30,354 nt of DNA from a virus, in UHGV virus genome UHGV-0236227, one strand, 5' to 3'. Of the stretch, positions 1-26,058 are shown piece after piece. The first letter of the stretch is position 1. The number at the start of each line of letters is the position of its first letter. The notes beneath the pieces are model-generated. The model had not been told where the DNA came from. It worked only from the letters and a program-made list of their open reading frames with translations, and ran no database searches. The translations under genes and the position numbers were made by a program.

Positions 1-5
1 GCACA

Positions 6-470
6 TTATTTTCTCTCCATGTGAAATCTGTGGAAATTAAGACCAAGAGCACCATAAGGCGCGGCTTCTTCAAGCCTGAATCCAAGCCAGTGCAGCCATG
101 CTTTGGCAACATGGTTTCGCTCGTCGACATAGTTTTCCAGGCGCGGATAAACTGCCAGCATCTGCTGCAATACAGGGCGGCAGTGGCGAAGAAATGTCTT
201 CTGATATTTTTCGATACGGCTGGTTCCGACCAGCCAGGGCGTACCATTGCCACCGATCATTGACGCCGGAGATACGCCAAACATGGTTACCAGTTCTCCG
301 TTCGCAAATCCTGACCAGGCCATAGTCGCAGTACGCAGACCAACACGCAGCGCATCTTCGGTAGTCATCAGTGATACCGCATACAGTTCGTCAATATCAG
401 CCTGACGAACATCCGGCAAAATCATCTGAAGATGCTCTTCGGTTGCAGGAATAATTTGAACACCGATCAT
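6..470 (-). CDS. Virion protein, T7 gp13-like by position (internal virion protein candidate)
   Basis: 154-aa ORF; start shares one base with the stop of the upstream 823-aa gene (TGATG). Occupies the slot after gp11/gp12-like genes; T7 gp13 is of similar size. No motif recognised. Confidence 0.45.
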   Translation of the reverse strand: MIGVQIIPATEEHLQMILPDVRQADIDELYAVSLMTTEDALRVGLRTATMAWSGFANGELVTMFGVSPASMIGGNGTPWLVGTSRIEKYQKTFLRHCRPVLQQMLAVYPRLENYVDERNHVAKAWLHWLGFRLEEAAPYGALGLNFHRFHMERK

Positions 471-2941
471 CAGAATCCCCCAACAGTAAGGCGAGGAATA
501 ACGGCAAGAACAGACAGCGGCAACGGATCAAGCTGACGGATTTTTACACGTCCGTTTTTGCCCCAGTTACTGTCCAGTTTCACTTCTACTTTTCCGGTAG
601 CATCATCAACAGGATCATCGTAGAACTCGAATTCACGCTGTGGATATTCGTACCATTTACCGCCGGGCGTAGTCGCCCAGATGCCGCGACTGGCATTCAC
701 AACCAGAGTAACGGAGGGGATCACCTGTTTTTTGTCCAGCAGCGTTTCCTGTCCGTTAATGTTGATATCCAGTGTTTCGAATTCAGCAGTTATTGGCAGG
801 CCGATGTGCACTACAGCCCCCGGAGATTCCAGCGTGACGGCACCTCCGGAAACCACTTTCTGTGGTTCCACGTTCGCATCAGAGAGAATGTTTACGGTCT
901 GGCCTTCAAGATGAGACAGGCCTCCAAATGTCCGGCGCGCCATCTGCCAGTTCGTGGTGGCCACATTCCTGAGGGATGGCGGGACGTTCCTGTTAGCACG
1001 AACCACTACAGCGGTATTGCTGGTTACAGAAATAATGTCGCAACGTAATTCTTTTGACACCTCATCGCCAGTATCAGGATCAGTTCCGGTATAAGGGAAC
1101 TGTAGTTGCGCGCCGACATCACTACTGGTGAAGTACGCACCACCAGAAACACTGATTGTATATTCCGCGCGGTAATCCCATTCGCCAGAACCACCAGTGA
1201 TGGTCATCGTTCTGTCAGACGTATTTCTTCCATCATAGCTAAGGCCAGAATCAACAAAGAAAGCATCTTCATCGCTGGTAAATAAACGGCTGGACAGTCG
1301 CTCGATGTATCTCACTGTTTGCCCGTTAACGGTTCGGTTAATGACGAAATACACCGCATCTTCATTGCCTTCGCTGATACTGCATGTGCTTTCATATTTT
1401 CCGGTACTGGACTGTGGTGCCCATGCAAAAACCTGTTGATCACGCAAATAGGTCATCACCAGTAATTTACCGTCATCACGAATGCAGAAGGCGCTGGAGT
1501 AAGGGACAATAGAGAAGCACCAGTCAACAATGCTGTGCTTCTGAAAAAGATGATTGGCAAGGATAGTAAGGTCGTTCCCCTGATAGCCGTCAACATCGAA
1601 TGAGTAGGCCAGATCACGGACAACACTGCCTTTCTCCTGGACGAACAGAGCAATATTCGCCACGGCAATTGGTGGGACATTGCTCGAGCCATTTGATCCC
1701 TGAGAGCTGAATGCAAATGATGATGGGGTTAACACTTTGTTCTGGTCGCCGGTGATGACGTACTCACCTCCGGAAGTCAGCGCCACCAGAGAACCAACAT
1801 CAATCAGGTGGCGGATCTCATTAACCTGACGCCCGGCATAGGTGTAGATAATTCTGTCGTCATCCTGCGTAGGATTGCTTTTGCCAAAATCCTTATAATC
1901 CCCGGTACGGCTGGCCCAGATAGTCTGAGGGAACGCAGTCGATGCGGCGAAGTAAAGACGCTGTTGATAATAAACAACAGTGCCAGGATAACCATTAACA
2001 CTGTTCCAGGCATATTTAGCCCATTTATAGCTGGCATTATCCTCGCCAACGACCTGCGAAGGGATATAGGAAATCACCTCAGCAGTTGCAGTAGTGCCAT
2101 TTACAGCAGTTATACTGGCAATGCCAAAACCACTGTGCAGATACTCCCACTCAATGCCAGTATCATCATCACCGGATCCGCCCCAGCCATCCCATGATGT
2201 GCCTTCTGTATGCGAAGGGCGCAAAGTACCTGTTTTGCCTGCTGTAACGGCGCGATAGTAGTTACTGTCTGCACGGCGAATATCGCCAATCGACGTACTC
2301 TTACTGGTTTCCCATACCGGCACAGAATCCACTGCAGGCTGTTCCAGATAGAACAATTTGCCTACCTGCTCCGCGCCAAAAATAGAGGCGCTTGCCGTTA
2401 ACGTAATTGTCCCGGTGCTGGCGCTGGCATAAACCGTCACTGACTCGTCAATATTGATATCTTCAAATGGCCCGTTCTTCGTTACCACATCAACCAGTTG
2501 CCAGTTGTCATGCGCATAGCGACGCAACTCTTTCGGCGGGTATGCCGGATGAACCAGCGTAAGCACGTCGGCGCTTTGCGTGAATTTAATTCGGAACAGA
2601 TCGGCTTCAGTATATGGCGTGGCAATTTCATAAATAACATTGCTGCTGTTCAGCACCAACGCACCATCTTTGATAACGCGCATGTACTGGTGTCCGAACT
2701 CCAGAGCATAGGTCTGAACCGTCGAGAACTGGAACGGGATCAGGCGGCATTTCCGATTTGGGTATTTGGCGGCACCGACAAAACGCGTACCAGGTCGATT
2801 CTCAACGCCGCCATACTGCCGCACGATAAAGTTATCGCACTTGCGCAATGCCACCTGGTACTTCGCCATGTCAATACGCCCGTACAACGACGGTCCAATC
2901 TCACCACCGGCAAAGCTGGGCTGGATCCAACTGATAGCCAT
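470..2941 (-). CDS. Tail tubular protein B-like (T7 gp12-like)
   Basis: 823-aa ORF coupled to both neighbours; size and position match T7 gp12 (about 794 aa). Similarity is recalled, not computed. Confidence 0.55.
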   Translation of the reverse strand: MAISWIQPSFAGGEIGPSLYGRIDMAKYQVALRKCDNFIVRQYGGVENRPGTRFVGAAKYPNRKCRLIPFQFSTVQTYALEFGHQYMRVIKDGALVLNSSNVIYEIATPYTEADLFRIKFTQSADVLTLVHPAYPPKELRRYAHDNWQLVDVVTKNGPFEDINIDESVTVYASASTGTITLTASASIFGAEQVGKLFYLEQPAVDSVPVWETSKSTSIGDIRRADSNYYRAVTAGKTGTLRPSHTEGTSWDGWGGSGDDDTGIEWEYLHSGFGIASITAVNGTTATAEVISYIPSQVVGEDNASYKWAKYAWNSVNGYPGTVVYYQQRLYFAASTAFPQTIWASRTGDYKDFGKSNPTQDDDRIIYTYAGRQVNEIRHLIDVGSLVALTSGGEYVITGDQNKVLTPSSFAFSSQGSNGSSNVPPIAVANIALFVQEKGSVVRDLAYSFDVDGYQGNDLTILANHLFQKHSIVDWCFSIVPYSSAFCIRDDGKLLVMTYLRDQQVFAWAPQSSTGKYESTCSISEGNEDAVYFVINRTVNGQTVRYIERLSSRLFTSDEDAFFVDSGLSYDGRNTSDRTMTITGGSGEWDYRAEYTISVSGGAYFTSSDVGAQLQFPYTGTDPDTGDEVSKELRCDIISVTSNTAVVVRANRNVPPSLRNVATTNWQMARRTFGGLSHLEGQTVNILSDANVEPQKVVSGGAVTLESPGAVVHIGLPITAEFETLDININGQETLLDKKQVIPSVTLVVNASRGIWATTPGGKWYEYPQREFEFYDDPVDDATGKVEVKLDSNWGKNGRVKIRQLDPLPLSVLAVIPRLTVGGF

Positions 2942-3549
2942 CAGGACAACCTCGCAATGGTAAACTCATCAACCGGTGGCTGTGGTTCCTGTGATTCATT
3001 CTGGCTATGCGAGCCAGCACTAAGAATCACGCGATTGTACATATTGAGGGCAAACGTACCGAGGTCTGCATTCCCAGTCAGCGCCATGTTAATAGCTGCC
3101 GCAAGACGCCAGGCCAACGCCTCCATAAAAATGGCATCAAACATGTTCACATCTGAAACGCGAGAGACATACTTGAGCCATGCCTGCGGCTGGTCTGTGT
3201 AGATCAACTTTCCTGTTCCGTTGGTGTCTGCACCAACTTCGTACTGAACGCGCATTGCTGCTGTTGGATTGCGTACACCAGGAAGCATAATTTCAGTAAT
3301 GCGCAGACAATCGGACGGGTACTGGTACGCATATTCCCAGTCAGGCGGTGGATTGTTCGTATCTGCAAGCGCCACGCGTTTGGTAGCAAAGTTCCAGTCA
3401 AAATCAGAAAGCACAGCATCACGGCAGGCCTCAAAGTGCAGCGAACATTCCCCTGCTTCCTTGCTGGCTTCCGTCAGGCTGTTAATGCTGCGGCTGTTGC
3501 CAATATTGGACAGCGCACGATTACAGATCTCTACTACAGAGGCCATCAC
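2941..3549 (-). CDS. Tail tubular protein A-like (T7 gp11-like)
   Basis: 202-aa ORF; N-terminal segment (ALSNIGNSRSINSLTE) resembles the T7 gp11 N-terminus as recalled; size close to gp11 (196 aa); synteny with the gp12-like gene. Confidence 0.55.
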   Translation of the reverse strand: MMASVVEICNRALSNIGNSRSINSLTEASKEAGECSLHFEACRDAVLSDFDWNFATKRVALADTNNPPPDWEYAYQYPSDCLRITEIMLPGVRNPTAAMRVQYEVGADTNGTGKLIYTDQPQAWLKYVSRVSDVNMFDAIFMEALAWRLAAAINMALTGNADLGTFALNMYNRVILSAGSHSQNESQEPQPPVDEFTIARLS

Positions 3550-3869
3550 TCCCCCCCGTTACCGTAGAGGGTTTCAGCCGCTGATTTTTCTACATCACCG
3601 GAAACAGGAGCGATTGCCATATCAGTGATCTGCAGATCGGCGCTGCGATTAACACCATCGTCAGTTTCTCTGGCAGACAGGCCTCGAATAACAGCCTTTG
3701 CAGTTATCATCACTTCTGTTCCGACGCCCTGAGGTTGCGCCTTCAGCTTATTCAATGTGTCGTTATTAAGAGTGATGCACAGCCCCCACGGGTATTCATC
3801 GCAAGTTCTGGTTTCTCCGCTCTCATCCTGGTAGCTGTCAGTGCCGGTTTTGAGGTTTACGAGTTCCAT
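3546..3869 (-). CDS. Small virion-module protein (hypothetical)
   Basis: 107 aa from ATG at 3869, preceded by an AGGAG Shine-Dalgarno at 6-nt spacing. The track ORF starts at a GTG two codons upstream (3875). Confidence 0.5.
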   Translation of the reverse strand: MELVNLKTGTDSYQDESGETRTCDEYPWGLCITLNNDTLNKLKAQPQGVGTEVMITAKAVIRGLSARETDDGVNRSADLQITDMAIAPVSGDVEKSAAETLYGNGGE

Positions 3870-3880
3870 ATACACTCCTG

Positions 3881-3901
3881 CAATAAAGGGGCCGAAGCCC
3901 C
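3881..3901 (-). terminator. Stem-loop (GGGGC-cgaa-GCCCC) followed by a U-rich tract on the minus strand; candidate attenuator inside the structural operon
   Basis: Hairpin at 3888..3901; minus-strand downstream sequence is TTTATTG. Lies between two small virion genes. Confidence 0.35.
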
Positions 3902-3919
3902 TTGTCGGATTCGCGAGGC

Positions 3920-4255
3920 TTACACGCCCAGTTCTTTACGCTTATCTGCGATCTTCTCGCGGAGCGTTTCGGCTTTAGCGTTATGGTGTGGCTTCTCGTT
4001 AAAGAGCAATTCGTACTCTTCACGGAGCTTATCCAGTTCACCATCATCTGACACATCATTGATGATTTTGGTGCTGGTTGCTGCCATTGACACCTTTCCT
4101 GCAACTTTTGCTTTTGCCTGTCTGGCTGCATCGTTAACAGGTTCCAGTGCGCTACCAGGCTCACCTTCGTATTCGATTTCTGCCCCCTCCGGCCACAGAG
4201 TGTTATGGATATGAGAGAGGCGCAGAACGAGGTATCTTGGTTTCTCACCTGACAT
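3920..4255 (-). CDS. Small virion-module protein (hypothetical; capsid decoration candidate)
   Basis: 111 aa from ATG at 4255 with AAGGTGA Shine-Dalgarno (track ORF starts at GTG 4264). Charged, coil-like composition. Function inferred only from location next to the capsid gene. Confidence 0.45.
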   Translation of the reverse strand: MSGEKPRYLVLRLSHIHNTLWPEGAEIEYEGEPGSALEPVNDAARQAKAKVAGKVSMAATSTKIINDVSDDGELDKLREEYELLFNEKPHHNAKAETLREKIADKRKELGV

Positions 4256-4265
4256 CGATATCACC

Positions 4266-4703
4266 TTAACCAGTTACTTTTGAGCGGATCGGATACGGCG
4301 TATTGGCATCAACATCAAGACTGATACCAGCAGTGAATTCGCCAGCCGTTAGTGGGCCAGTTGCGACGGAGTAGTTAACACGCAGATATCGCTGAACACC
4401 GGCAGGCACCTTTGCAGAAACAACTCGTTTACCTGCTGTCAGGGCGGTCTTTGCCAGTGCGCCACTATCATAAATAGTGGTCCATGAGCTGTTATTTTCA
4501 CTCGTCTGCAACTGGATGTTTACAGTTGCATCACCGCTTGCCGCGGCGGCTGTGTTAACCAGCGCCCAAAACTCAAGCGGGTAACCAACGCCGATATCAC
4601 GACGTTTTCCGTCAATTGGACCGAGATCGATTACGTCAGTAGAAGCCGCGGTATCAGTTACCGCCTGAGCTTCGGAGAACATCAACAGTTTGTCGGTGAT
4701 CAT
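4266..4703 (-). CDS. Virion-module protein (hypothetical)
   Basis: 145-aa ORF; GGAG Shine-Dalgarno 7 nt upstream of the ATG at 4703; directly downstream of the capsid gene. Confidence 0.55.
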   Translation of the reverse strand: MITDKLLMFSEAQAVTDTAASTDVIDLGPIDGKRRDIGVGYPLEFWALVNTAAAASGDATVNIQLQTSENNSSWTTIYDSGALAKTALTAGKRVVSAKVPAGVQRYLRVNYSVATGPLTAGEFTAGISLDVDANTPYPIRSKVTG

Positions 4704-4718
4704 CTTCTTTCTCCATTA

Positions 4719-4738
4719 GTGGGTCTGTTACGACCCAC
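4719..4738 (-). other. Stem-loop (GTGGGTC-N6-GACCCAC) between capsid gene stop and next RBS
   Basis: Perfect 7-bp inverted repeat with a 6-nt loop, seen directly; position is analogous to the post-capsid terminator of T7-like phages. Confidence 0.35.
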
Positions 4739-4754
4739 AGGTTAATAACAGGCG

Positions 4755-5747
4755 TTACACCACGCGGGCTTCTGTTTCCAGAAGCGCATCAGTTTCACGG
4801 ATTGGTACACCACGGAATGAAGTCCACCACTCGCCTTCTGTCTCTTTTACGCTGATCGCCAGAGATGTTTTCTCCAGAGATTGCAGATCAAGAGCCTGTC
4901 CTACAGTGCGGTTCATGTAGAACACCGGGCGACCCATGCCACGATTTGGAATGCGATGCAGTGCTTTAACCATCAACTTCGCAATATTTGCGGCAGAGGA
5001 AGGTTCTGAAAGATTGCTGACATCGATGTTTGCAATGCGAACAACATAACGCCAGTCACGCAGAGCAAGTCCGTTGTCCCATTTGTAATGGGTACGGTAG
5101 CCTTCGTACTTGCCGCCATTAGCATCTTCCAGTGTCACCTGGCCTTTATCTTCCATCTGAATGCCAGCCTTCTGCCCTTTCGGGAAGATGCCATGCACGG
5201 TGTTTTCGCCCCACACCACTAACCAGATTGAGGTGTTATCTGTACCCGTGCCACCAGCATCAATGATGTTCTGAGCATTACCTGCAGACAGGCTGGAATA
5301 GCGGGAGGACAGTCCCATAAACTGCTGAGGGTTAACGCTGGAATCACCATAAAACAGCGTCTGCGCCATCTGCTGATTCATCGCTTCAATAAATGCGCGG
5401 TCTTCAGACAGGCGGAATTCGGCGGTATTGCCGTTCAGATCAGCCAGTGACTTATCGACTTCAGCATAGGTTTCCAGCATGCCAACGGAATCGGTTACCT
5501 GCACTGTGGTTGATTTGCTTGGCTGTACGCCATAGTTCAGCAAACGCCAGGTAGCTGAAGGTAAACCAGAACGAATGGTGGTTCGGTGTCCGGTAGGAAG
5601 GTTCCCTTCGACAAAAGGCATATCCTGAAGGATCGGGTTAGTTTGACCGAGAAGCTCGATAATCTTATCGACTTTCCCGTTTGGATCGACGCGCTTACCC
5701 CAGTCAGCCAGCGTTAGCGCAGTTAAGCCTTTAACAGCCATTGTCAT
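4755..5747 (-). CDS. Major capsid protein
   Basis: 330-aa ORF directly after the scaffold gene in portal-scaffold-capsid order; AGAGGA Shine-Dalgarno. Start may be ATG 5747 or 5741. Confidence 0.75.
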   Translation of the reverse strand: MTMAVKGLTALTLADWGKRVDPNGKVDKIIELLGQTNPILQDMPFVEGNLPTGHRTTIRSGLPSATWRLLNYGVQPSKSTTVQVTDSVGMLETYAEVDKSLADLNGNTAEFRLSEDRAFIEAMNQQMAQTLFYGDSSVNPQQFMGLSSRYSSLSAGNAQNIIDAGGTGTDNTSIWLVVWGENTVHGIFPKGQKAGIQMEDKGQVTLEDANGGKYEGYRTHYKWDNGLALRDWRYVVRIANIDVSNLSEPSSAANIAKLMVKALHRIPNRGMGRPVFYMNRTVGQALDLQSLEKTSLAISVKETEGEWWTSFRGVPIRETDALLETEARVV

Positions 5748-5755
5748 TTCCTCTC

Positions 5756-6457
5756 TTATTTGCCATAGAGCACTTCGGCCGCACTACGCTGGCCTTCATT
5801 ACCACCGGTGACCATGCCATCTTCAGACATCGCCTTTCCGATTTTCACGAACGTTTTGACCAGATCAGGGTGATTACCCAGCCCGGTGGTGTTCAGATAT
5901 TCTTTGAGTTCAGGTGTCCCGAACTGGTCAAGCGCACGCTGTGCGGCGCTAAGGTTAGAAATCAACTTGTCGCCACCGATTTCTTTGTCAGCTTTTACAT
6001 CAGCAGCCCACTGCTCGGTTGTTTTCTGCCAGGCTTCTGCCTGGCGCTGCTGCACACCTGCCAGAATCTTCGGATAAGCATCAACCAGCTTTTGCGCTTG
6101 CTCGTTGGTCAGGTTAAGTTCTCGCGCCACCGGCTCGAACTCCTTCAGCGCTTCTGTATCCAGCTCTACGCCTTCGGCAGCCTGAAACTCGTACTTCTCA
6201 GGCGCACCCTCTGGTTTATCGCCGTCCTTTTTTTCATCCTGCTTATCGTTTTCAGGATTTTTGTCATCAGCAGGTTTATCGCCATCAGCAACAGGTTGTG
6301 GCTTATCACCTTCCTGTTGTGATGGATCACCAACTGGAGCAGGGTTATCACCTGCAGGCGCTGACGGTTCTGACGCAGCCGGAGCTGCTCCACCATCGAC
6401 TGGTTGCTCATTGCAAAGACGGCGATACAGCAAACGCTCAAATAAATTCATGATCAC
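5756..6457 (-). CDS. Capsid scaffolding protein
   Basis: 233-aa ORF with a long acidic Pro/Asp/Lys-rich low-complexity segment and helical C-terminus; sits between portal and capsid; ATGA coupling to the upstream gene. Confidence 0.7.
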   Translation of the reverse strand: MIMNLFERLLYRRLCNEQPVDGGAAPAASEPSAPAGDNPAPVGDPSQQEGDKPQPVADGDKPADDKNPENDKQDEKKDGDKPEGAPEKYEFQAAEGVELDTEALKEFEPVARELNLTNEQAQKLVDAYPKILAGVQQRQAEAWQKTTEQWAADVKADKEIGGDKLISNLSAAQRALDQFGTPELKEYLNTTGLGNHPDLVKTFVKIGKAMSEDGMVTGGNEGQRSAAEVLYGK

Positions 6458-6750
6458 TCCTGTTCACTGGCCTCTTTGGCCATCTTCAAATACTGTTCAG
6501 GGCAATGCGCCATAACGCGCTGAAACAGTTCCAGCGCCAGATTGCGTTGCCCCTCATTAAATGCCATTGCCATAGCGTCCATCGGTGAGATAGCGGAAAA
6601 CACACGGCCTTTCTCCAGCACCGACCAGACAACGCGACGCCCCTGTTCACTGCTCATGACAAAGCGAATGTCATCAATTTCACGCTGCGCCATGTCACGT
6701 TGCTTACGGGCGTTTTCTTCTTTCAGTTGTTCGTCTTCGTAATCTGTCAT
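6454..6750 (-). CDS. Hypothetical head-assembly protein
   Basis: 98-aa ORF, ATGA-coupled to the portal stop and to the scaffold start. Confidence 0.55.
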   Translation of the reverse strand: MTDYEDEQLKEENARKQRDMAQREIDDIRFVMSSEQGRRVVWSVLEKGRVFSAISPMDAMAMAFNEGQRNLALELFQRVMAHCPEQYLKMAKEASEQE

Positions 6751-8426
6751 TGTGATTGCCCACCCTGACCACTAACTGCATTCGCCATAGCTGACAAAAC
6801 ACTCGGATCCGAAGTTTTAGCTTCGCTTAGCGTCTTGGCACCCTGTGCCGCCGCCATCCCCATCGCCATCATTTGTTGCTGCTGTTGCTGCTGTGCCCGT
6901 TGCTGGCGAGCCTGCTCAACCTGTTCCTGCGGAACAATGACGGTTGGAGACACTCCGGACATATCAGCGAATGCATCGATCGCTTGATCAACGTTGAGTT
7001 TGTCGAGAGCTTCTGGTTTCGCTTGCGCAAGTTGACCAATGAAGTTAACCGTGGACGCCAGACTGGACAGGCCGATAGACTTCTGCGCCTGAGCCATGAC
7101 GGAAATGTATTCGACCTTCAGGGGCATGCCTTCCATCGCGTCAGGCGGTGGCGGCAGCATGTTTTTACGCACCATCATCGAGAAAGCGCGGTCAATGAGA
7201 GGATTAAGACATTCGTCGTTCAGACGCTCCAGAACCGGCCCCAACATCAGAAGTTTTTCTTCTTTCATTTCGATCACCGCTTCAACAGGCATCGAGCGGG
7301 TATTGATGTTCTGCAACATCATGAACAGATCGACAAAGTAGGCGCTGTTAATGATTTGACGAGTGTCCTGAATGTCTGCCACCAAATCTGCTGTACTGGG
7401 GTTAACCAGATAAGCAGGCCTGAAGCCATCCTGACCAGTAATCTGATCGATATACGTGATGTCGCCAGGAAGAAGGGAGGCGCGCTGATTCTTGAGGGAA
7501 GTCGGAGCAACCATCGGCGGATTGGTGGCTTTATCAATCAACTGCGACTTGCGCTTCTGAAGAAGCTGCAATGCCTTAACAGATCCAAGCGCCAGCATAC
7601 CCGGGCATGATGATCCATAAACATCTTCGCCGTTAACTTCCCAGCGCGGAGCCATAATTGGAAACTCATCGAATCCGGACTCACGCAACAACTTGTCGTT
7701 ATCGCCACCAACCTCGTAATAAACCGATTTGAATGGCTTGTTCTTGCTATCCAGCTTCGATGTATCGCGGTCAATGTTCGGGTAAACCGAATGCATCACT
7801 TCAATCCACTTCTCGTAGGTGCCGCTTTCCCACATGCTTTTTACGGATTCGCTGACGTTATTTAGCCCGAACTCCTGAACAAGCTGACGAACAGTCATAG
7901 AGAACTTGCGGAAACAGGTGTCCACACTGCCACGAGGTGAGTTAGCCAGGTAGTAACTGCCTATCGGGAATGGCATTGTGCGAATGATGTCCTCGTCATC
8001 CTCCAGCACCGCCATTGCACCAGTGCTGTATGTGCCGAGGCTTCCGTATAACTGCGGAAGAGACTGGTAGAGATTCGACTTATTGAACATATCGTTCATG
8101 CGGTTCTGCACCGCCTCAAGCCACAACTTAACAGGGCCATAATCCATCATTTCAGGATCTGGCGTAGCCAGGCGAAACCACGGACGCGCGGGGCTTGTGA
8201 TGCCTGACATCATGCCGCTGGCGAGAGTGCGCGCCGCCATAGTCCCGGTCGAATCAATAATGCGTGTATTGCGTCGATCGTTACGGTTGACCTCAGAAGT
8301 CAGAAAGCGGGAACCACGCGGGTTGATGTAATCACTCAACTCGCGCCAGTGCGGCTCGAACGACTGACGCTCGCTTTCAAGTTGTGCGAACTGTTTGTTC
8401 AATCGCTCTTTAGTTGTTTCCGCCAT
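6747..8426 (-). CDS. Portal (head-to-tail connector) protein, T7 gp8-like
   Basis: 559-aa ORF; GGAG Shine-Dalgarno 8 nt upstream of ATG 8426; size and position typical of podovirus portals; Gln-rich C-terminal tail. Confidence 0.85.
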   Translation of the reverse strand: MAETTKERLNKQFAQLESERQSFEPHWRELSDYINPRGSRFLTSEVNRNDRRNTRIIDSTGTMAARTLASGMMSGITSPARPWFRLATPDPEMMDYGPVKLWLEAVQNRMNDMFNKSNLYQSLPQLYGSLGTYSTGAMAVLEDDEDIIRTMPFPIGSYYLANSPRGSVDTCFRKFSMTVRQLVQEFGLNNVSESVKSMWESGTYEKWIEVMHSVYPNIDRDTSKLDSKNKPFKSVYYEVGGDNDKLLRESGFDEFPIMAPRWEVNGEDVYGSSCPGMLALGSVKALQLLQKRKSQLIDKATNPPMVAPTSLKNQRASLLPGDITYIDQITGQDGFRPAYLVNPSTADLVADIQDTRQIINSAYFVDLFMMLQNINTRSMPVEAVIEMKEEKLLMLGPVLERLNDECLNPLIDRAFSMMVRKNMLPPPPDAMEGMPLKVEYISVMAQAQKSIGLSSLASTVNFIGQLAQAKPEALDKLNVDQAIDAFADMSGVSPTVIVPQEQVEQARQQRAQQQQQQQMMAMGMAAAQGAKTLSEAKTSDPSVLSAMANAVSGQGGQSQ

Positions 8427-8440
8427 TTCAATGACTCCGG

Positions 8441-8647
8441 TTACTGACCAAGCAGCGTTTTACCGCTGGTATTAGCGGTTGATGTGTCGCCCTGAGAACC
8501 GGTAAGCAGCGTAGAACTACGACCAGCAGCAGCGCGACGGCGACGAGTTTCTTCGTCGCGGGCATCAACAACGGCGGCATCCTGCTCCTGTGGTGCTGCC
8601 TGAACTTCTGGTGTTGCAGGCACTGATGGTGAGCTACCCATGCACAT
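8441..8647 (-). CDS. Small hypothetical protein upstream of portal
   Basis: 68-aa ORF whose RBS context (GGAGTCATTGAT-ATG) is nearly identical to the portal RBS (GGAGTCATTGAA-ATG); low-complexity sequence. Confidence 0.35.
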   Translation of the reverse strand: MCMGSSPSVPATPEVQAAPQEQDAAVVDARDEETRRRRAAAGRSSTLLTGSQGDTSTANTSGKTLLGQ

Positions 8648-8715
8648 ATCAATGACTCCGTACGCAATTAAATTATTACCAATTTAACCACATATGATTT
8701 ATTTATCGTAGATAG

Positions 8716-8744
8716 TTGACATTTAACGCACTAATTATTACCTT
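8716..8744 (+). promoter_or_regulatory. Candidate promoter (TTGACA -35) overlapping a TTACC-N5-GGTAA palindrome, pointing toward the tRNA
   Basis: TTGACA at 8716..8721; the -10 element is not clean (TAATTA/TACCTT candidates). Confidence 0.35.
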
Positions 8745-8752
8745 TCAGGTAA
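8738..8752. promoter_or_regulatory. TTACC-N5-GGTAA palindrome (putative operator)
   Basis: TTACCTTTCAGGTAA; identical 15-mer recurs at 29281..29295. Confidence 0.45.
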
Positions 8753-9074
8753 GCAAAGAGTTCATTCCGGTTATTAACCTGACTGGCTTGTCGTTAAATT
8801 GAACAGGTGGGGTGAGCTTTTATTTTGAGCAGTACGGTGTATGGCACATGCGCCGATAGCGGTCTGGATACGTTTAAGGGGCACCCTCCCTTGCTCGGGC
8901 AAACGAACCAGGTAGCCGGAATGTGCAAGTCGAGCGGTTTTATTCCGCGCACGGGGATTCACCATCCCGGCGATTCGGTGTGACGCCTCGGAAGAGACGA
9001 GGGTACAACGATGAGAGCATTTATGGAGCCGCGACAAAGTGTGGTGCCTTAACAGGCTAAGTGCTCTCAGCGTT

Positions 9075-9151
9075 GTGGCATTAGCTCAGTTGGACAGAGC
9101 AACCGCCTTCTAAGCGGTTGGTCGCAGGTTCGAATCCTGCATGCCACGCCA
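9075..9151 (+). tRNA. tRNA-Arg (anticodon UCU), phage-encoded
   Basis: 77-nt cloverleaf folded by hand: 7-bp acceptor stem GTGGCAT/ATGCCAC, D-arm GCTC-AGTTGGACA-GAGC, anticodon stem ACCGC/GCGGT with loop CTTCTAA, T-arm GCAGG-TTCGAAT-CCTGC, encoded CCA end. Confidence 0.9.
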
Positions 9152-9194
9152 GAATCACGCCTAAGGACCGTGATGCCAGAAGTTCCAGGGGCTT

Positions 9195-9236
9195 GGCGGT
9201 GATGGTTTCCCTTGAAGGACTATCACCGCCCTTTTT
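9195..9236 (+). terminator. Intrinsic terminator after the tRNA
   Basis: 9-bp stem GGCGGTGAT/ATCACCGCC with an 18-nt loop, followed by CTTTTT. Confidence 0.55.
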
Positions 9237-9314
9237 ACAGCAGGACGCCATTGCGATGGCTTCATGCTGTAAACCAGTACAGCCACGGAAGGCATAACTC
9301 ATTGCTTCCAGTTC

Positions 9315-9339
9315 GCCCGGTTCGCCGGGCATTTTTTTA
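9315..9339 (+). terminator. Intrinsic terminator immediately upstream of the 118-aa ORF RBS
   Basis: GCCCGG-ttcg-CCGGGC hairpin followed by a run of 7 T. Confidence 0.55.
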
Positions 9340-9349
9340 AGGTGAGATT

Positions 9350-9706
9350 ATGAACGACCAGCAAATCGAAAAAGAAATCGCTGAGAAAGGCAAAACGGCA
9401 CCGCGAGTTACGCCCCAATATATCGAAAGCATCATTCTTGAAGAGCATTTCTTTACTGCTTATGACGGCATTCGTGCTGCCAATATGGGCGTTGGCGATT
9501 CATGGACAGCGCATAAATCTACAGACCTCCTGACTTTCTGCGTACTGGTGCTGAAGAATGGCTTCACCGTCACCGGAGAGAGCGCCTGTGCAAGCCCGGA
9601 AAACTTTGATGCAGAAATTGGTCGGAAGATTGCCCGGCAGAATGCTGTAAACAAAATCTGGATGCTTGAAGGTTACTTGCTGAAGCAGAAGTTAAGCGAG
9701 CAATAA
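9350..9706 (+). CDS. Small phage accessory protein (Gp49-like, tentative)
   Basis: 118-aa ORF with AGGTGA Shine-Dalgarno; opposite strand to flanking terminase and portal; family assignment is from recalled motifs only. Confidence 0.55.
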   Translation: MNDQQIEKEIAEKGKTAPRVTPQYIESIILEEHFFTAYDGIRAANMGVGDSWTAHKSTDLLTFCVLVLKNGFTVTGESACASPENFDAEIGRKIARQNAVNKIWMLEGYLLKQKLSEQ

Positions 9707-9710
9707 CACC

Positions 9711-9722
9711 GTGACATGTCAC
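9711..9722. repeat. Perfect 12-bp palindrome GTGACATGTCAC (copy 1), preceded by ATAACACC
   Basis: Read directly; second copy at 12165..12176 with the same ATAACACC context. Confidence 0.6.
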
Positions 9723-9726
9723 AAAC

Positions 9727-9753
9727 AGCCAGCCTATGAGCTGGCTTTGTTTT
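9727..9753 (+). terminator. Intrinsic terminator after the 118-aa ORF
   Basis: AGCCAGC-N6-GCTGGCT hairpin followed by TTGTTTT. Confidence 0.55.
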
Positions 9754-9796
9754 ATCCTCACCAGAGGATATCAACGACATTATCCCCACCAGCGGA

Positions 9797-11272
9797 TTAA
9801 GCATAGGGATCGTAATCTGTAATGGCCTTGCCTTGCTGGTTCTGCTGACCTGGAATTCGCAGACGCTTCGACACAGGGAAAGCAAACGTCAGCAATAGCG
9901 CATCGCCTTTACCCGGCGAACGCCCAAGACGCTCTTTGATATCTTCCTTCGGTTCGATAACGATTTTACCGTCCACACGAACTTTGTACTCTGCCGCCGA
10001 CAGGTCGTCTGCAGTTTCCTGGTCATCCAGCATGCCGCCCAGCCTCAGCCATGTCTTACATGAGTTGAACATCTCCCCACGCTTGTTAAGCATCTGCGGG
10101 TCAGTGGACGCACCGCCGAACGGAACAAGTTGCCATGTACGTCCCCAGCCATCACCGATTGACTTCAGACCGGTTCCGTAACCGAAGTCGATGAACACCG
10201 CGTCAGCCTGGTACTGGTCTTCAAAGTCAGCGATACGCTTCGCCATAATCAGATCGTCGGTGGTCTTGTTGCCGGTCCACAGCACCTTACTGTGCAGCCC
10301 CTGCCGCAGGTATATCACCGCGTCATCAACGCCTGAATATGCCGGGTCAACACCGATTATCACCGGAGCATGTGCAACCTGCGCAGCGGTTACCACCCGT
10401 TTCATTGCCTCGTCAGTAAGACCGGTAGGGATAAACTGCAATTCAGATGCATCAGGGAATATGCCACGCACACGGATTTTAACGAAGTCGCTATCTTCCC
10501 CGTAGTCATCAACCCATTTCTGCAACTGCTGTTTGTTGGTGCCTTCCACCGTCCTGCTGTCAATCTGCGCAGTTTTCCAGCGGTGTTTGTATTTGCGGAA
10601 ACATTCACGGAAACGCCCGGTGTTACGTGTAGGGTTTCCGAAAGCCACCCAGATAATCTCAGTGTCTTCGTCCGTTAGCGCACCCTCGGCAACTTCCCAC
10701 ACCAGATCCGCAATGTTCGACGCTTCATCAAATACCACGATGATGCGTTTACGCTCGTTGTGTAGTCCGGCGAATGCCTCAGTGTTGTGCTCAGACCAGG
10801 GGATTGCGTCAGCTCGCCACCGCTTGTCGTGCCCAGGGTCATTGCTGTACATCGCGGTAGCGGTACAGGTAAACCAGTCTTTCGTGATAGCAAGGTTTGA
10901 CCACTTGATAATTTCCGGCCAGGTCTTCGTTCGTAGCTGGTTGTCGGTGTTGGCGGTCACCACGACCTTACAATCCTCGCAAGTGGACATGCCCCAGTTG
11001 GTCAGCATTGAGATGAATGCGGATTTACCAATACCGTGACCAGAAGCACGTGCCAGCATAAGCGGCTGATATCGCGTCTCTGGATTCTGCAGGTGATCAC
11101 GTATCTCTCGGAACGCATCAGCCTGCCACTGACGTGGGCCGGTGGCATGTGCCAGTTCAGTCCCCTCTTCCCCCCATGGGAACGCATAGAGGGCATAGCC
11201 AAGCGGATCGTGAGTGAACCCTGCAATATCCTCGATTAACTGCTCTTCAGGAGATAACGCTGTATCTGTCAC
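9797..11272 (-). CDS. Terminase large subunit
   Basis: 491-aa ORF with Walker A-like ASGHGIGKS, Walker B-like IIVVFDEAS and a C-terminal acidic nuclease-like segment (VIIGVDPAYSG); ATGA coupling to the terS-like gene. Confidence 0.9.
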   Translation of the reverse strand: MTDTALSPEEQLIEDIAGFTHDPLGYALYAFPWGEEGTELAHATGPRQWQADAFREIRDHLQNPETRYQPLMLARASGHGIGKSAFISMLTNWGMSTCEDCKVVVTANTDNQLRTKTWPEIIKWSNLAITKDWFTCTATAMYSNDPGHDKRWRADAIPWSEHNTEAFAGLHNERKRIIVVFDEASNIADLVWEVAEGALTDEDTEIIWVAFGNPTRNTGRFRECFRKYKHRWKTAQIDSRTVEGTNKQQLQKWVDDYGEDSDFVKIRVRGIFPDASELQFIPTGLTDEAMKRVVTAAQVAHAPVIIGVDPAYSGVDDAVIYLRQGLHSKVLWTGNKTTDDLIMAKRIADFEDQYQADAVFIDFGYGTGLKSIGDGWGRTWQLVPFGGASTDPQMLNKRGEMFNSCKTWLRLGGMLDDQETADDLSAAEYKVRVDGKIVIEPKEDIKERLGRSPGKGDALLLTFAFPVSKRLRIPGQQNQQGKAITDYDPYA

Positions 11273-11868
11273 TGATTGCCATCCTGACGTTCTTTCAGTC
11301 TCTTCCTGGCTGCCGCTATGCGATCAGCAATTGTCACATTCACATTAACATCCAGGCGTTCTTTGAATGCGTTGACGTCGACGTGCTTACCAATCAGTTC
11401 GAGGTTCTTCACCTTGTCAGGCCATTTAATTTTTTTGAGGATGCCAACCAGCTCTTTCTCGTCTCCACGGCCTTCGAACATGTCGGCCAGTTCGAAACCT
11501 GTCAGGTACTGCCGCCAGACCTTAGGCCATTCCGAGACCGGCTTGATGCTCATATCGTCGTTGAGAATGTCAATCACGTCCATCTGGTCGATCTCCACCA
11601 GGCGCATGAGAACGTAATCAGCACTGACGCGCATTCGTTTGTTGCGCTCCTCCATCAACTCGGCAATCCGTTTTTGAATGCGTTCATCGCGCATCATGAC
11701 ACTGGCTTTAACTGCCGCTGTATTTGGGGAGAATCCTGCGTTAATCGCAGCCTGAGTCTGGTTTTCAGGCGTTTGGATGTATGACTGGCAATAAGCCTCC
11801 TGCATTGCTGTTAGTGGCTTAAATTGCGTTGATTTGCGTTTATAGGTTTTAGGTTCAGCAGGCATCAT
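11269..11868 (-). CDS. Terminase small subunit
   Basis: Directly upstream of and coupled to terL; conserved-looking core. Start uncertain: likely the internal ATG pair at 11868/11865 rather than the track start at 11946. Confidence 0.7.
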   Translation of the reverse strand: MMPAEPKTYKRKSTQFKPLTAMQEAYCQSYIQTPENQTQAAINAGFSPNTAAVKASVMMRDERIQKRIAELMEERNKRMRVSADYVLMRLVEIDQMDVIDILNDDMSIKPVSEWPKVWRQYLTGFELADMFEGRGDEKELVGILKKIKWPDKVKNLELIGKHVDVNAFKERLDVNVNVTIADRIAAARKRLKERQDGNQ

Positions 11869-11876
11869 AACCACCG

Positions 11877-11907
11877 TGGTAATAGTTACCGTTGTGGTAA
11901 TAGTACC
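11877..11907. repeat. Tandem copies of GTGGTAATAGT(T)ACC, each an inverted GGTAA...TTACC unit, just upstream of terS
   Basis: Two direct repeats 17 bp apart (11877..11890 and 11894..11907), between a terminator hairpin and the terS start codon. Confidence 0.45.
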
Positions 11908-11909
11908 AT

Positions 11910-11937
11910 GCAAAATAAAGCCGCCATAGTTGGCGGC
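11910..11937 (-). terminator. Intrinsic terminator upstream of the packaging and structural operon
   Basis: GCCGCCA-tagt-TGGCGGC hairpin followed on the minus strand by TTTATTTTG. Confidence 0.55.
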
Positions 11938-11942
11938 AGTAT

Positions 11943-12176
11943 TCAAAGTCCATCAAATTCATCGTAAAAACTCTCGTCAAGATACCCTTCCCATTTACCG
12001 CGAATGAAAATTACATCCTCGCCGCAAGGGTGCTGACTGTCGATAACTATATCCCTCCTGGCGCAACCATACTTATGCATGAGAAATTTAACCTCTTTCG
12101 GAAAATTTGCTGAGTTATCTCTCATATCTTCAAGGTCGTAGCGTATTTTTGGCATAACACCTTCGTGACATGTCAC
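11943..12176 (-). CDS. Hypothetical protein
   Basis: 77-aa ORF; start ambiguous (GTG at 12176 or ATG at 12155). Confidence 0.4.
   Translation of the reverse strand: MTCHEGVMPKIRYDLEDMRDNSANFPKEVKFLMHKYGCARRDIVIDSQHPCGEDVIFIRGKWEGYLDESFYDEFDGL
12165..12176. repeat. Perfect 12-bp palindrome GTGACATGTCAC (copy 2)
   Basis: Identical to 9711..9722, including the upstream ATAACACC. Confidence 0.6.
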
Positions 12177-17728: not shown

Positions 17729-18313
17729 ATGAAAAGTATCCAGGACGTCCGCAGGCAAAATCTCAACGACTTGATCGACCGTGAATTCAATGGTGTTCAG
17801 ACGCGGATGGCAGAAAAACTTGGAACTCAGGCAAATCTGGTAAACCGCTGGGCTCTTGGCAAGAAGGTTATCGGCGACCAGGTTGCACGAAAAATTGAAG
17901 CTGCCGCCAATAAACCCCGTAACTGGCTTGATATTGATCGTTCGCTTTCTCAGGAGGGTTTTCAGCCTGTCGGCCCGAGCGATATAGGTCAGTTGGCGGC
18001 TCACAACCTGGAACGCTGGATGAGCGAAAGCCGCGACCTTTCAACACAGGGAAAACTTCACCGCGCATCCGGCGTCGCCCAGGTGACAATCAGCCGCCTG
18101 TTAAACAATGAGGTCAGCGTTTCCATTTCCACTCTGGAGAATGTTGCATCCGCATTCGGGCGTCACGGATATGAACTACTGATTCACCCGCACGACCCTG
18201 CGACTATCAACTATGACCGCTCACGCTACGCATTGTTACCCGAAACCGAGAAAGCAAAGATCGAAAGTTACATTGAATTTGTCATCAACCAGAACGAAAA
18301 AAGCAAACAATAA
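17729..18313 (+). CDS. CI-like repressor candidate with two HTH-like segments and no recognisable S24 peptidase domain
   Basis: 194-aa ORF divergent from Cro-like gene; two XRE-type HTH-like segments; no Ser-Lys peptidase motifs recognised. Confidence 0.55.
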   Translation: MKSIQDVRRQNLNDLIDREFNGVQTRMAEKLGTQANLVNRWALGKKVIGDQVARKIEAAANKPRNWLDIDRSLSQEGFQPVGPSDIGQLAAHNLERWMSESRDLSTQGKLHRASGVAQVTISRLLNNEVSVSISTLENVASAFGRHGYELLIHPHDPATINYDRSRYALLPETEKAKIESYIEFVINQNEKSKQ

Positions 18314-18370
18314 AACTATAGTTTTCAGTAAGTAAGCCGCCTCATGGCGGCTTTTTTATTGCCAGATAGA

Positions 18371-18447
18371 TTACCTTACGGGTAATTTTTTTAACTCATA
18401 TCTATTGACACTAAACCAAATAAGCATAATTATTACCTCAACGGTAA
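18371..18447 (+). promoter_or_regulatory. pL-like promoter region with two TTACC-N5-GGTAA palindromes flanking a TTGACA -35 element
   Basis: Sites at 18371..18385 and 18433..18447; TTGACA at 18405..18410; directly upstream of the recombination operon. Confidence 0.5.
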
Positions 18448-18466
18448 CAGACCGAGGTAACAAGTT

Positions 18467-18619: not shown

Positions 18620-18621
18620 TA

Positions 18622-20849: not shown

Positions 20850-20898
20850 CCACCACCGCGGCGCCACGTGCGCCGCACTGCAACCAAGAGAGGTATTC

Positions 20899-26032: not shown

Positions 26033-26058
26033 CCCGCAAAATATTGCGGGCTTTTTTT
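26033..26058 (+). terminator. Intrinsic terminator (CCCGCAA-aata-TTGCGGG plus 7 T) at the 3' end of the tailspike gene
   Basis: Canonical only in the plus orientation; the T-run overlaps the tailspike stop codon. Confidence 0.5.

Follow-up and report, generated by a model that had tools for sequence, protein, structure and literature searches.

The tail and internal virion proteins of phage epsilon15 have been related to those of T7 (Hardies et al. 2016; PMC4819975) and assigned to a 'transient tail homology group', with an HMM-HMM match between epsilon15 gp12 and T7 gp12 at E<1e-10 (PMC4819975). The RefSeq record of epsilon15 already carries an HHpred match of its gp11 to T7 gp11. The reference late operon for phages of this type begins with TerS-TerL and continues, further on, as portal-gp5-gp6-gp7(capsid)-gp8-gp9-gp10-gp11-gp12-gp13. 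Capsid proteins of the BPP-1/epsilon15 family have an HK97 fold with a different chain topology, termed the 'BPP topology' (PMC3863775), and solved structures of homologues are available for Bordetella phage BPP-1 (capsid, 3J4U) and Cobetia phage Carin-1 (8CJZ, 8CK0 and 8CK1). The solved tail of the Legionella phage LME-1 (9EFK) has been described as closely resembling those of T7 and Carin-1 (PMC12407071), and the T7 kinship of this tail type can be seen in cryo-EM structures from both Carin-1 and LME-1.

The window analyzed here is a 30,354-nucleotide stretch of viral DNA (UHGV-0236227). Open reading frame calls place ten minus-strand genes at 6-8426, with the same coordinates as in the preliminary description of this DNA. 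They are given below in transcription order, followed by the tailspike gene, which lies outside this region.

6747-8426, minus strand: portal, 559 aa (first)
6454-6750, minus strand: 98-aa gene (second)
5756-6457, minus strand: 233-aa scaffold-like gene (third)
4755-5747, minus strand: capsid, 330 aa (fourth)
4266-4703, minus strand: 145-aa gene (fifth)
3920-4264, minus strand: 114-aa ORF, 111 aa from ATG (sixth)
3546-3875, minus strand: 109-aa ORF, 107 aa from ATG (seventh)
2941-3549, minus strand: 202-aa gene (eighth)
470-2941, minus strand: 823-aa gene (ninth)
6-470, minus strand: 154-aa gene (tenth)
26057-29176, minus strand: tailspike, 1039 aa, with a putative N-terminal attachment domain at 28679-29176 (approximately aa 1-166)

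The ten encoded proteins show 96-99.7% identity to p07-p16 of Escherichia phage phiV10 (NC_007804; Uetakevirus phiV10), in which they occur in identical order. Over positions 1-11963 of the window, the DNA shares 97-98% identity with phiV10 and with its close relatives vB_EcoP_ZX5, TL-2011b, phiv142-3 and PAS61 (for phiV10, 97.5% identity over 98% of this interval). The remainder of the window is a mosaic half, only 53% covered by phiV10 at 94.8% identity. The receptor-binding part of the tailspike differs from that of phiV10 (an endosialidase in the window, O157-specific in phiV10), and in the window no oac gene separates the tailspike from the ORF that comes next downstream. By ICTV convention, a genus corresponds to approximately 70% nucleotide identity over the genome, and the window, judged on the visible part of the genome, falls within Uetakevirus on this measure. 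Its late operon is also collinear, one-to-one, with gp4-gp13 of Salmonella phage epsilon15 (NC_004775) as well as with phiV10 p07-p16. The region and its T7 resemblance can, with high confidence, be attributed to a late operon for virion morphogenesis in a phiV10-like Uetakevirus, a short-tailed temperate member of the epsilon15 group carrying an old, independent lineage of T7-type tail. Functions named for its genes are transferred from homologues and are to be read as predicted. Promoter-like and terminator-like sites showed no enrichment over shuffles in 1-9800.

The preliminary description had proposed that the region follows the order of T7 gp8 to gp13, and this stands for the portal, adaptor, nozzle, gp13-like protein and, on weak profile links, the tailspike N-terminus, but fails for the capsid and scaffold at the family level. 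The capsid protein is a member of the BPP-1/epsilon15 family (Pfam PF20911, E 2e-149; NCBIfam NF045672), while T7 gp10A is in a separate family, PF21703, and the proposed match to T7 gp10 does not hold. Its PDB matches are BPP-1 (3j4u_A, 9.5e-129), Carin-1 (8cjz_Y, 1.2e-87; 47% identity) and epsilon15 gp7 (3j40_A, 2e-85). Based on family membership, the head appears to be of the BPP-1/epsilon15 type, with a gp7/Bbp17-family capsid gene and a Bbp16-family gene immediately downstream. The product of this downstream gene, the 145-aa protein, matches Pfam PF21190 (1.2e-46), the BPP-1 'cementing protein' (3j4u_H, 1.6e-25; 43% identity) and the Carin-1 'Capsid Decoration Protein' (8cjz_B, 2.2e-22; 46% identity). 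It is probably a Bbp16-type cement (decoration) protein, expected to form jellyroll dimers on the outer capsid, and should be annotated as a cement protein. The role of decoration candidate had previously been given to the 111-aa (114-aa) protein, wrongly in view of the homology of the 145-aa protein to the cement proteins of BPP-1 and Carin-1. The 114-aa protein belongs to phrog_590, which has no function assigned, and is 39% identical to epsilon15 gp9; it has no relative in BPP-1 or Carin-1 and no match in Pfam or NCBIfam. The last of the three small proteins encoded after the capsid gene, the 107/109-aa protein, matches Pfam PF21628 (1.4e-50), is 42% identical to BPP-1 Bbp20 and is a homologue of epsilon15 gp10 (3j40_N, 9.3e-21), published as a capsid 'staple'. 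A search for prior literature mention of Bbp18, Bbp19 or Bbp20 returned nothing relevant.

The capsid gene is part of a cassette that has been exchanged relative to epsilon15. Identity to epsilon15 is high for the portal (81%, to gp4), scaffold body (74%), adaptor (85%), nozzle (88%) and gp13 (63%), whereas the cassette proteins are only 36-43% identical and almost no DNA similarity is left. DNA similarity to epsilon15 ends at 5792, within the scaffold gene, and the exchanged cassette (3546-5792) takes in the final 12 codons of the scaffold gene together with the genes for the capsid and the three small proteins. Those 12 codons (5756-5792) encode the C-terminal tail of the scaffold, ...SAAEVLYGK, and the tail of the 109-aa gp10-like protein, ...SAAETLYGNGGE, mimics it. 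The tails are shared and co-varying, with the end peptide following the consensus A-x-x-[L/M/F]-[Y/F]-[G/P/S] and co-evolving between the two proteins. In phage PAT1, likewise, the type of scaffold tail goes with the type of capsid protein. The shared peptide thus appears, from the sequence comparisons, to be inherited with the capsid cassette and not with the scaffold body, an observation that may be new. Related loci were drawn from a genome scan that comprised only eight loci (n = 8) and from a scan of viral contigs, in which a first seed recovered near-identical loci only and a second seed was needed for diversity.

Which of the two small proteins forms the outer cement depends on the weight given to the epsilon15 structure. 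If the published epsilon15 assignment is carried over, the 109-aa gp10-like protein would be the external staple and the 145-aa Bbp16-like protein would have some other role; the 4.5 Å epsilon15 model (3J40) gives the outer two-fold dimers to gp10, reviews give gp10 as the decoration protein of epsilon15, and the homologue of gp10 here is the 109-aa protein (9e-21 to 3j40_N). Such a reading is possible, though on balance doubtful. The cement proteins of BPP-1 (3.5 Å) and Carin-1 are of the Bbp16 type and match the 145-aa protein, and the cement protein of PhiXacm4-11 (3.16 Å) is gp26, a candidate Bbp16 relative numbered directly after capsid gp25. The window capsid is nearer to that of BPP-1 (62% identity) than to that of epsilon15 (43%). 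Further, BPP-1 and CP2 carry gp10-like genes, yet the shells of BPP-1 and of the CP2 relative PhiXacm4-11 are modelled with capsid and cement proteins only. In BPP-1, the gp10-like gene sits between the portal and Bbp19, away from its position in the window, and in Carin-1, which has extra head-spike genes, it was not found among the genes tested. The mimicry of the scaffold tail by the gp10-like protein also speaks against an external staple. The two families show no relation by hhalign and are therefore not detectable paralogues. Three later structures, all at higher resolution, may conflict with the capsid model of epsilon15, and the assignment of the 145-aa protein as the Bbp16-type cement is kept here.

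A tentative function can be suggested for the shared peptide, namely that it is a capsid docking tag by which the gp10-like protein might substitute for the scaffold in entering the procapsid or acting on it, though this is a speculative proposal with less than even chances of being right. Analogies can be drawn with herpesviruses, where protease and scaffold have a capsid-binding tail in common, and with the cargo peptides of encapsulins. If the docking reading is true, the external cement would be of the Bbp16 type and the outer-staple assignment of epsilon15 gp10 would need to be re-examined.

The 233-aa protein, matched in the preliminary description to the T7 scaffold gp9, has no detectable similarity to gp9, and its scaffold role rests on position and composition. 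Its homologues are BPP-1 Bbp18 and Carin-1 gp44. PHROGs and RefSeq labels would instead make it a prohead protease, with the protein falling in phrog_458 (labelled 'protease') and with epsilon15 gp6 and Bbp18 annotated as protease or endoprotease. This is unlikely, as neither Pfam nor NCBIfam shows a protease domain in the 233-aa protein and the label itself derives from similarity to a 'putative endoprotease'. The BPP-1 capsid and cement proteins are uncleaved (PMC3863775). The N-terminal part of the protein is rich in Pro, Asp and Lys, looks of low complexity and is likely disordered, as is typical of scaffolds. The C-terminal tail of the protein travels with the capsid gene, as expected of a coat-binding scaffold tail. 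The 'protease' label should be replaced by scaffold.

Beyond the head genes, the resemblance to T7 is carried by proteins of the portal and tail. No window protein had a significant match to T7 gp8-gp17 by BLASTP or phmmer, and pairwise sequence similarity to T7 is absent. Sizes in the window and in T7 (gp8, gp9, gp10A, gp11, gp12 and gp13) are, respectively, 559/536, 233/307, 330/345, 202/196, 823/794 and 154/138 aa, and for the last three the agreement in size and order noted previously exists as stated. Counterparts of T7 gp8, gp11, gp12, gp13 and the gp17 N-terminus have similar sizes, the same order and a shared Pfam or PHROG family or fold. The T7-like order is more than chance, since family, profile or fold evidence independently ties each of these five proteins to T7, weakly in the case of the tailspike N-terminus.

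The portal and T7 gp8 fall in the same Pfam family, PF12236 (E 4e-188 and 2.8e-113, respectively), and cross-match in PHROGs (phrog_332 and phrog_449), bearing out the gp8 assignment and supplying the T7-type tail machine with a gp8-family portal. The protein is 99% identical to phiV10 p07 and also matches the Carin-1 portal (8ck0_A, 8e-178; 51% identity), with 44% identity to that of BPP-1. Between the portal and scaffold lies the 98-aa gene, a Bbp19-like gene (PF25181, 2.8e-17) that is conserved at this position across the phage group, with homologues in BPP-1 (Bbp19, 7e-20) and Carin-1 (gp45, 8.5e-10), and that has no counterpart in T7. Three extra small genes between the capsid and the gp11-like gene had been recognized correctly, but this one was overlooked; relative to T7, the phiV10-like module has four.

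None of the Pfam or NCBIfam models reach the adaptor, nozzle, scaffold or 114-aa protein. For the 202-aa adaptor, a shallow profile gave no match to T7 gp11 by hhalign (E 0.54), and structure prediction was therefore used. The AlphaFold2 model is of moderate confidence (pLDDT 74) and, by Foldseek against the PDB, matches the Carin-1 connector (8ck1_E, TM 0.80), LME-1 (TM 0.63) and T7 gp11 (7box_M, E 2.2e-6, TM 0.58), with almost all of the matches to E 1e-3 being podophage adaptors. Sequence agrees, with a phmmer match to 8ck1_E at 2.8e-26, 33% identity to the adaptors of both BPP-1 and Carin-1 and a match to LME-1 orf17 at E 5e-5. The predicted fold thus supports a gp11-type adaptor beside the nozzle, in line with the proposed T7 gp11 counterpart.

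The 823-aa protein matches the Carin-1 'Tail Nozzle' (8ck1_A, E 7e-217; 45% identity over the full length) and LME-1 orf18 (2.5e-15), and is 39% identical to its BPP-1 counterpart over residues 312-575. A profile of its family aligns with T7 gp12 by hhalign (E 5e-5; residues 315-439 to T7 337-466), and 13 of 35 family representatives match Pfam PF25675, Phage_nozzle (best 1.9e-13). Based on the profile match and the Phage_nozzle links of its relatives, the protein is a probable nozzle of the gp12 type, only distantly related to that of T7, as had been suggested for its counterpart. LME-1 is otherwise much more distant from the window, and its head decoration protein differs (PMC12407071).

After the nozzle, the 154-aa protein provides the gp13-type gene (IVP-A). 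It shares phrog_308 with T7 gp13 (E 1.6e-62 and 1.1e-42, respectively) and matches gp13 directly by hhalign (E 1.9e-4); its sole Pfam match is PF11090, at E 0.088. The AlphaFold2 model (pLDDT 93.6) has a GNAT acetyltransferase fold, with the top BFVD matches being 'Internal virion protein A' of T7-like phages (TM 0.78-0.88) and the PDB matches all being GNAT enzymes. The gp13-like family profile returned only noise against the PDB. The shared PHROG, profile match and fold together support the proposed gp13 counterpart, and the structure predictions of the 202-aa and 154-aa proteins, the check put forward in the preliminary description, returned folds matching T7 gp11 and internal virion protein A. 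The 154-aa protein has a counterpart in Carin-1 (gp35), but the BPP-1 genes tested included none; in BPP-1, the nozzle gene is followed by Bbp12. The phiV10 and epsilon15 annotations and the published comparison (PMC4819975) put the ejection genes IVP-B, -C and -D outside the window, past its edge. Adaptor, nozzle and IVP-A can supersede the labels 'hypothetical protein' or 'tail protein'.

The N-terminus of the tailspike is linked to that of T7 gp17 by four shared PHROGs (phrog_1640, 27277, 2710 and 8460) and by a weak hhalign match to gp17 residues 1-170 (E 0.0016, 140 columns, probability 16%). Its sole Pfam match, PF03906 (E 0.009), falls short of the Pfam cut-off, and it is 34% identical to the N-terminus of Carin-1 Dpo31. 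These profile links and PHROGs are consistent with the gp17-like N-terminus suggested earlier; the remainder of the protein is an endosialidase.

A tail of the P22 type (gp4, gp10 and a gp26 needle) is very improbable. P22 is likewise a temperate lambdoid podophage, its gp10 is very distantly related to the nozzle family, and homologues of IVP-A and IVP-B occur in P22 (PMC4819975). However, the portal shares its Pfam family with T7 gp8, the significant fold matches of the adaptor are T7-type adaptors with no P22 entry among them, and phiV10 has no needle gene after the nozzle. In the published comparison, only the epsilon15 and T7 nozzles gave a strong HMM match (PMC4819975), and the structures solved for close homologues, in Carin-1 and LME-1, have been called T7-like (PMC12407071).

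The T7-type tail occurs in a temperate background. An integrase, a divergent repressor/cro-like pair and O-like and lambda-P-like replication genes are encoded in the window, upholding the earlier description of a temperate genome with lambdoid-type regulation and replication genes. As had also been observed, there is no phage RNA polymerase; a gene of that size is absent from the 30-kb window, in which the only ORF >850 aa is the tailspike, and no RNA polymerase gene is annotated in the phiV10 or epsilon15 genomes. The window thus differs from T7 in having no RNA polymerase and in being temperate with an integrase. It stands outside the Autographiviridae, lacking the single-subunit RNA polymerase and T7-type replication module as well as a gp10-family capsid and gp9-family scaffold (capsid in PF20911, not PF21703; scaffold without PF05396). 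The combination of T7-like order with lambdoid regulation is not unusual but defines the epsilon15/phiV10 group. Because BLASTP similarity to T7 is nil and the nozzle family comprises 18,290 cluster representatives, the module is best seen as a T7-type tail machine that has long evolved as a separate lineage, and not as a hybrid recently formed from T7 and lambda. A recent chimera, in which a T7-like virulent phage gave its structural genes to a lambdoid prophage, would account for the gene order and sizes mirroring T7 gp8-gp13 and for the lambdoid regulatory genes, but is effectively refuted by the kinship being visible at the profile or fold level alone, by head gene families that differ from T7 gp9 and gp10, by the same arrangement in BPP-1, BcepC6B, Carin-1, CP2 and hundreds of metagenomic contigs, and by the size of the nozzle family alone.

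While the gene identities, homology and folds come directly from the comparisons above, we infer the stoichiometries, the assembly order and whatever the 98-, 114- and 109-aa proteins do. The late operon would be transcribed right to left in the window, and a dodecameric T7-type portal would nucleate a procapsid, with HK97-fold capsid protein of the BPP-1/epsilon15 type assembling around the 233-aa scaffold. Once the DNA is packaged, the capsomers would be locked from the outside by the 145-aa Bbp16-type cement protein, acting as dimers, and a gp11-type adaptor ring and gp12-type hexameric nozzle would close the portal and carry six trimeric tailspikes, attached via their gp17-like N-terminal domains. 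The 154-aa GNAT-fold protein may act, as the T7 gp13 counterpart, as a factor needed for assembly of the ejection proteins, which would be encoded just past the left window edge.

The proposal of a T7-like module is correct in outline, and the region is the known phiV10/epsilon15 virion module; since the T7 kinship of the epsilon15 tail was published in Hardies et al. 2016, the finding was already known. It re-identifies a known block and adds nothing new to it, but is useful as a clean annotation. The capsid cassette could outweigh it. Scaffold tail, capsid gene and the three small genes after it are exchanged between phages as a unit, and this cassette, with its docking-like peptide, offers a testable handle on the assembly of a very common capsid type.

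Positions 1-11963 of the window share 97-98% DNA identity with Escherichia phage phiV10 and a dozen close relatives, including vB_EcoP_ZX5, TL-2011b, phiv142-3, and PAS61, and ~78% with Salmonella phage epsilon15. The proteins of the region are each 96-99.7% identical to the phiV10 products p07-p16, and gene order is collinear with both the phiV10 and the epsilon15 map. The remaining sequence, a mosaic in its likeness to phiV10, contains terminase genes, replication genes for an O-like initiator and a lambda-P-like helicase loader, a tyrosine integrase, and a divergent repressor/cro-like pair, in keeping with the temperate, lambdoid-regulated genome proposed in the preliminary description. As also proposed, the window has no phage RNA polymerase gene, nor do the annotated phiV10 and epsilon15 genomes. 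The identity to phiV10, the collinear map, the integrase and repressor genes, and the absence of an RNA polymerase together identify the element as a temperate podophage of the genus Uetakevirus. A tRNA-Arg (anticodon TCT; 9075-9151, plus strand) and a 118-aa ORF (9350-9706, plus strand) run antisense to the late operon in the interval from the terminase to the portal genes; by size and position only, the ORF probably corresponds to phiV10 p03 (Sf6 gene 66-like).

Ten ORFs, all running in one direction on the minus strand, occupy 6-8426, and their coordinates and sizes had been described correctly. The three small genes noted between the capsid and gp11-like genes are present; a fourth, of 98 aa and lying between the portal and scaffold genes, had been missed. 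Sizes run parallel to those of T7 gp8, gp9, gp10A, gp11, gp12, and gp13 (536, 307, 345, 196, 794, and 138 aa).

Virion genes of the window
6747-8426, minus strand: portal, 559 aa
6454-6750, minus strand: 98-aa gene, like BPP-1 Bbp19 (Pfam PF25181)
5756-6457, minus strand: 233-aa gene, scaffold-like (inferred role)
4755-5747, minus strand: capsid, 330 aa (PF20911)
4266-4703, minus strand: 145-aa gene, Bbp16 family (PF21190)
3920-4264, minus strand: 114-aa ORF (111 aa from ATG), epsilon15 gp9 homologue
3546-3875, minus strand: 109-aa ORF (107 aa from ATG), epsilon15 gp10 homologue (PF21628)
2941-3549, minus strand: 202-aa gene, adaptor (predicted fold)
470-2941, minus strand: 823-aa gene, nozzle (Carin-1 nozzle match and profile to T7 gp12)
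6-470, minus strand: 154-aa gene, T7 gp13-like (phrog_308 and model)
26057-29176, minus strand: tailspike, 1039 aa, with its N-terminus at aa 1-166

The module had been read as following T7 gp8 to gp13, a reading that holds for the tail and is partly mistaken as to the head and the decoration candidate. BLASTP and phmmer searches of the window proteins against T7 gp8-gp17 returned nothing significant and any kinship is therefore ancient. The portal and T7 gp8 are both full-length members of PF12236 (E 4e-188 and 2.8e-113, respectively) and cross-match each other's PHROG. A shallow sequence profile of the 202-aa adaptor did not reach T7 gp11 (E 0.54); an AlphaFold2 model (pLDDT 74) did (7box_M; E 2.2e-6, TM 0.58), placing the protein as gp11-like on predicted fold, and the model also resembles the connector of Cobetia phage Carin-1 (8ck1_E; TM 0.80) and the adaptor of Legionella phage LME-1 (TM 0.63) and retrieves the adaptors of P-SCSP1u, PhiM1, Kp7, HRP29, and KP32. 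The 823-aa protein matches over its full length the Carin-1 chain deposited as 'Tail Nozzle' (E 7e-217), as well as the LME-1 nozzle (E 2.5e-15), and its likeness to T7 gp12 is borne out by a profile of 35 diverse representatives of the nozzle family (E 5e-5; window residues 315-439, T7 residues 337-466), 13 of which match the T7 gp12 family PF25675 (Phage_nozzle; best E 1.9e-13). These 35 come from a very large family: at E ≤1e-3 it counts 18,290 cluster representatives (50% identity), and 9,140 at E ≤1e-30. Many relatives have an N-terminal half longer by 100-300 residues, and E1_FCCH or CBM_5_12 insertions occur in some. The 154-aa protein shares phrog_308 with T7 gp13 (1.6e-62 and 1.1e-42, respectively) and aligns with it by hhalign (E 1.9e-4); its sole Pfam match, below threshold, is PF11090 (Phage_T7_Gp13), and its model (pLDDT 93.6) lies nearest to Autographiviridae 'Internal virion protein A' (TM 0.78-0.88), supporting the gp13-like assignment, and among solved structures matches GNAT acetyltransferases.

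The gp17-like N-terminus ascribed to the tailspike is consistent with four PHROGs in common with the T7 gp17 N-terminus, a sole Pfam match to PF03906 (E 0.009), and an alignment in register with gp17 residues 11-155 (E 0.0016), all of them weak. The tailspike combines a Uetakevirus N-terminal attachment domain with a complete endosialidase, a K1 polysialic-acid capsule depolymerase, with a C-terminal S74 chaperone. In 20 phage records the catalytic part shows at least 99% identity; its identity to the other listed endosialidases, among them those of Kayfunavirus phages, phi92, and K1G, is ~55-63%. Query residues 341-748 are 99-100% identical to CUS-3 siaK1 fragments. In phiV10 an O-antigen acetyltransferase gene adjoins the tailspike, whereas in the window no ORF of at least 60 aa separates the tailspike from the next ORF downstream.

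The head proteins have other relatives. The capsid falls outside the T7 gp10 family (PF21703) and belongs instead to PF20911 and NF045672, matching Bbp17 of Bordetella phage BPP-1 (E 9.5e-129), the Carin-1 capsid protein, and epsilon15 gp7; PF20911-type capsids adopt the HK97 fold in its 'BPP topology' variant (PMC3863775). The 233-aa protein, proposed as the gp9 counterpart, had no similarity to T7 gp9 by BLASTP or phmmer and no protease domain in Pfam; we infer that it is the scaffold. The 111-aa decoration candidate is a homologue of epsilon15 gp9 without assigned function, with no relative found in BPP-1 or Carin-1. The cement match belongs to the 145-aa Bbp16-type protein, which matches the BPP-1 'cementing protein' (3j4u_H; 1.6e-25) and the Carin-1 'Capsid Decoration Protein' (8cjz_B; 2.2e-22). 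The 109-aa protein matches chain N of the epsilon15 capsid model (3j40_N; 9e-21) and is 42% identical to BPP-1 Bbp20.

These matches point to two different surface proteins. Outer two-fold dimers are formed by the cement protein in BPP-1 (3.5 Å; PMC3863775) and likewise in Carin-1 and PhiXacm4-11 (3.16 Å), a close relative of phage CP2. That protein is Bbp16-type in BPP-1 and Carin-1, and gp26, numbered next after capsid gp25, in PhiXacm4-11; gp10-like genes also occur in BPP-1 and CP2, elsewhere in the head module. Only the 4.5 Å model of epsilon15 gives the outer two-fold position to gp10, though that phage, too, encodes a Bbp16 homologue, gp8. The Bbp16-type and gp10-type genes lie at 6971-7363 and 7705-8040 in epsilon15 and at 18228-18650 and 20751-21080 in BPP-1. 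A mis-assignment or a real difference between phages could each possibly account for gp10 on the one surface and Bbp16 on the other; for the window phage, we regard the 145-aa protein as the likelier external cement protein.

Between the window and epsilon15, identity is 74-88% for the portal, scaffold body, adaptor, and nozzle, 67% for the 98-aa Bbp19-like protein, and only 36-43% for the capsid and the 145-, 114-, and 109-aa proteins. DNA similarity covers 1-3546 and 5792-8752, ending at exactly 3546 and 5792, with essentially none in the interval. Relative to epsilon15, 3546-5792 has been swapped as a single cassette made up of the final 12 codons of the scaffold gene, the capsid gene, and the 145-, 114-, and 109-aa genes. 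Two GC-rich hairpins on the minus strand directly follow the capsid stop (~4710-4745; no U tract) and the 114-aa gene (~3885-3905; GGGGC-UUCG-GCCCC then UUUAUU), with modest z-scores against shuffles (-2.1 and -1.2). Terminators are annotated at the equivalent site in epsilon15, and the hairpins may attenuate tail-gene transcription, like T7 Tphi after gene 10.

In the window, epsilon15, and BPP-1, the scaffold and the gp10-like protein of one phage end in the same peptide.

C-terminal tails and the window sites that encode them
Window: scaffold ...SAAEVLYGK (5756-5792); gp10-like ...SAAETLYGNGGE (3546-3590)
epsilon15: scaffold ...ISAFYPKK; gp10-like ...KDAFYPDGEDD
BPP-1: scaffold ...ARRLYAASNMNP; gp10-like ...AQRLYGASSMSA

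Across 91 loci with both proteins (mostly viral contigs, the rest reference phage genomes, bacterial genome contigs, and the window), giving 46 distinct tail pairs, the motif A-x-x-[LMF]-[YF]-[GPS] is present in nearly all pairs. The two tails co-vary: among 12 lineage representatives, identity between cognate tails (0.31) exceeds that between non-cognate ones (0.17; permutation p ~1e-4, two motif-defining positions excluded). Phage PAT1 provides a natural swap, having a scaffold body 94% identical to that of epsilon15, a window-type capsid (84% identical), and both tails window-type; the tail thus goes with the capsid cassette and not with the scaffold body, as expected of a coat-binding scaffold tail. 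Its copy on the gp10-like protein suggests that both proteins may dock on the same partner. One phage in which the gp10-like and scaffold proteins of this group have clear homologues, alongside a portal-sized gene, is the 39 kb Limnohabitans phage DC33 (PQ492659), classed as Inoviridae in the public record, a taxonomy line that therefore looks wrong.

The likeness to T7 has been recorded before. Hardies et al. 2016 reported a strong HMM-HMM match of the tubular tail B (nozzle) family of epsilon15 with that of T7 (E<1e-10) and found that T7 IVP-A, which matches acetyltransferases, serves as an assembly factor and is not part of the virion (PMC4819975); the epsilon15 RefSeq record carries HHpred notes linking gp11 to T7 gp11, gp8 to Bbp16, and gp13 to GNAT; and the portal, adaptor, nozzle, and fibre base of LME-1 resemble those of T7 and Carin-1 (PMC12407071). 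The module as a whole is therefore an already known and very common phage module; only the observation on the shared tail and the capsid cassette may be new.
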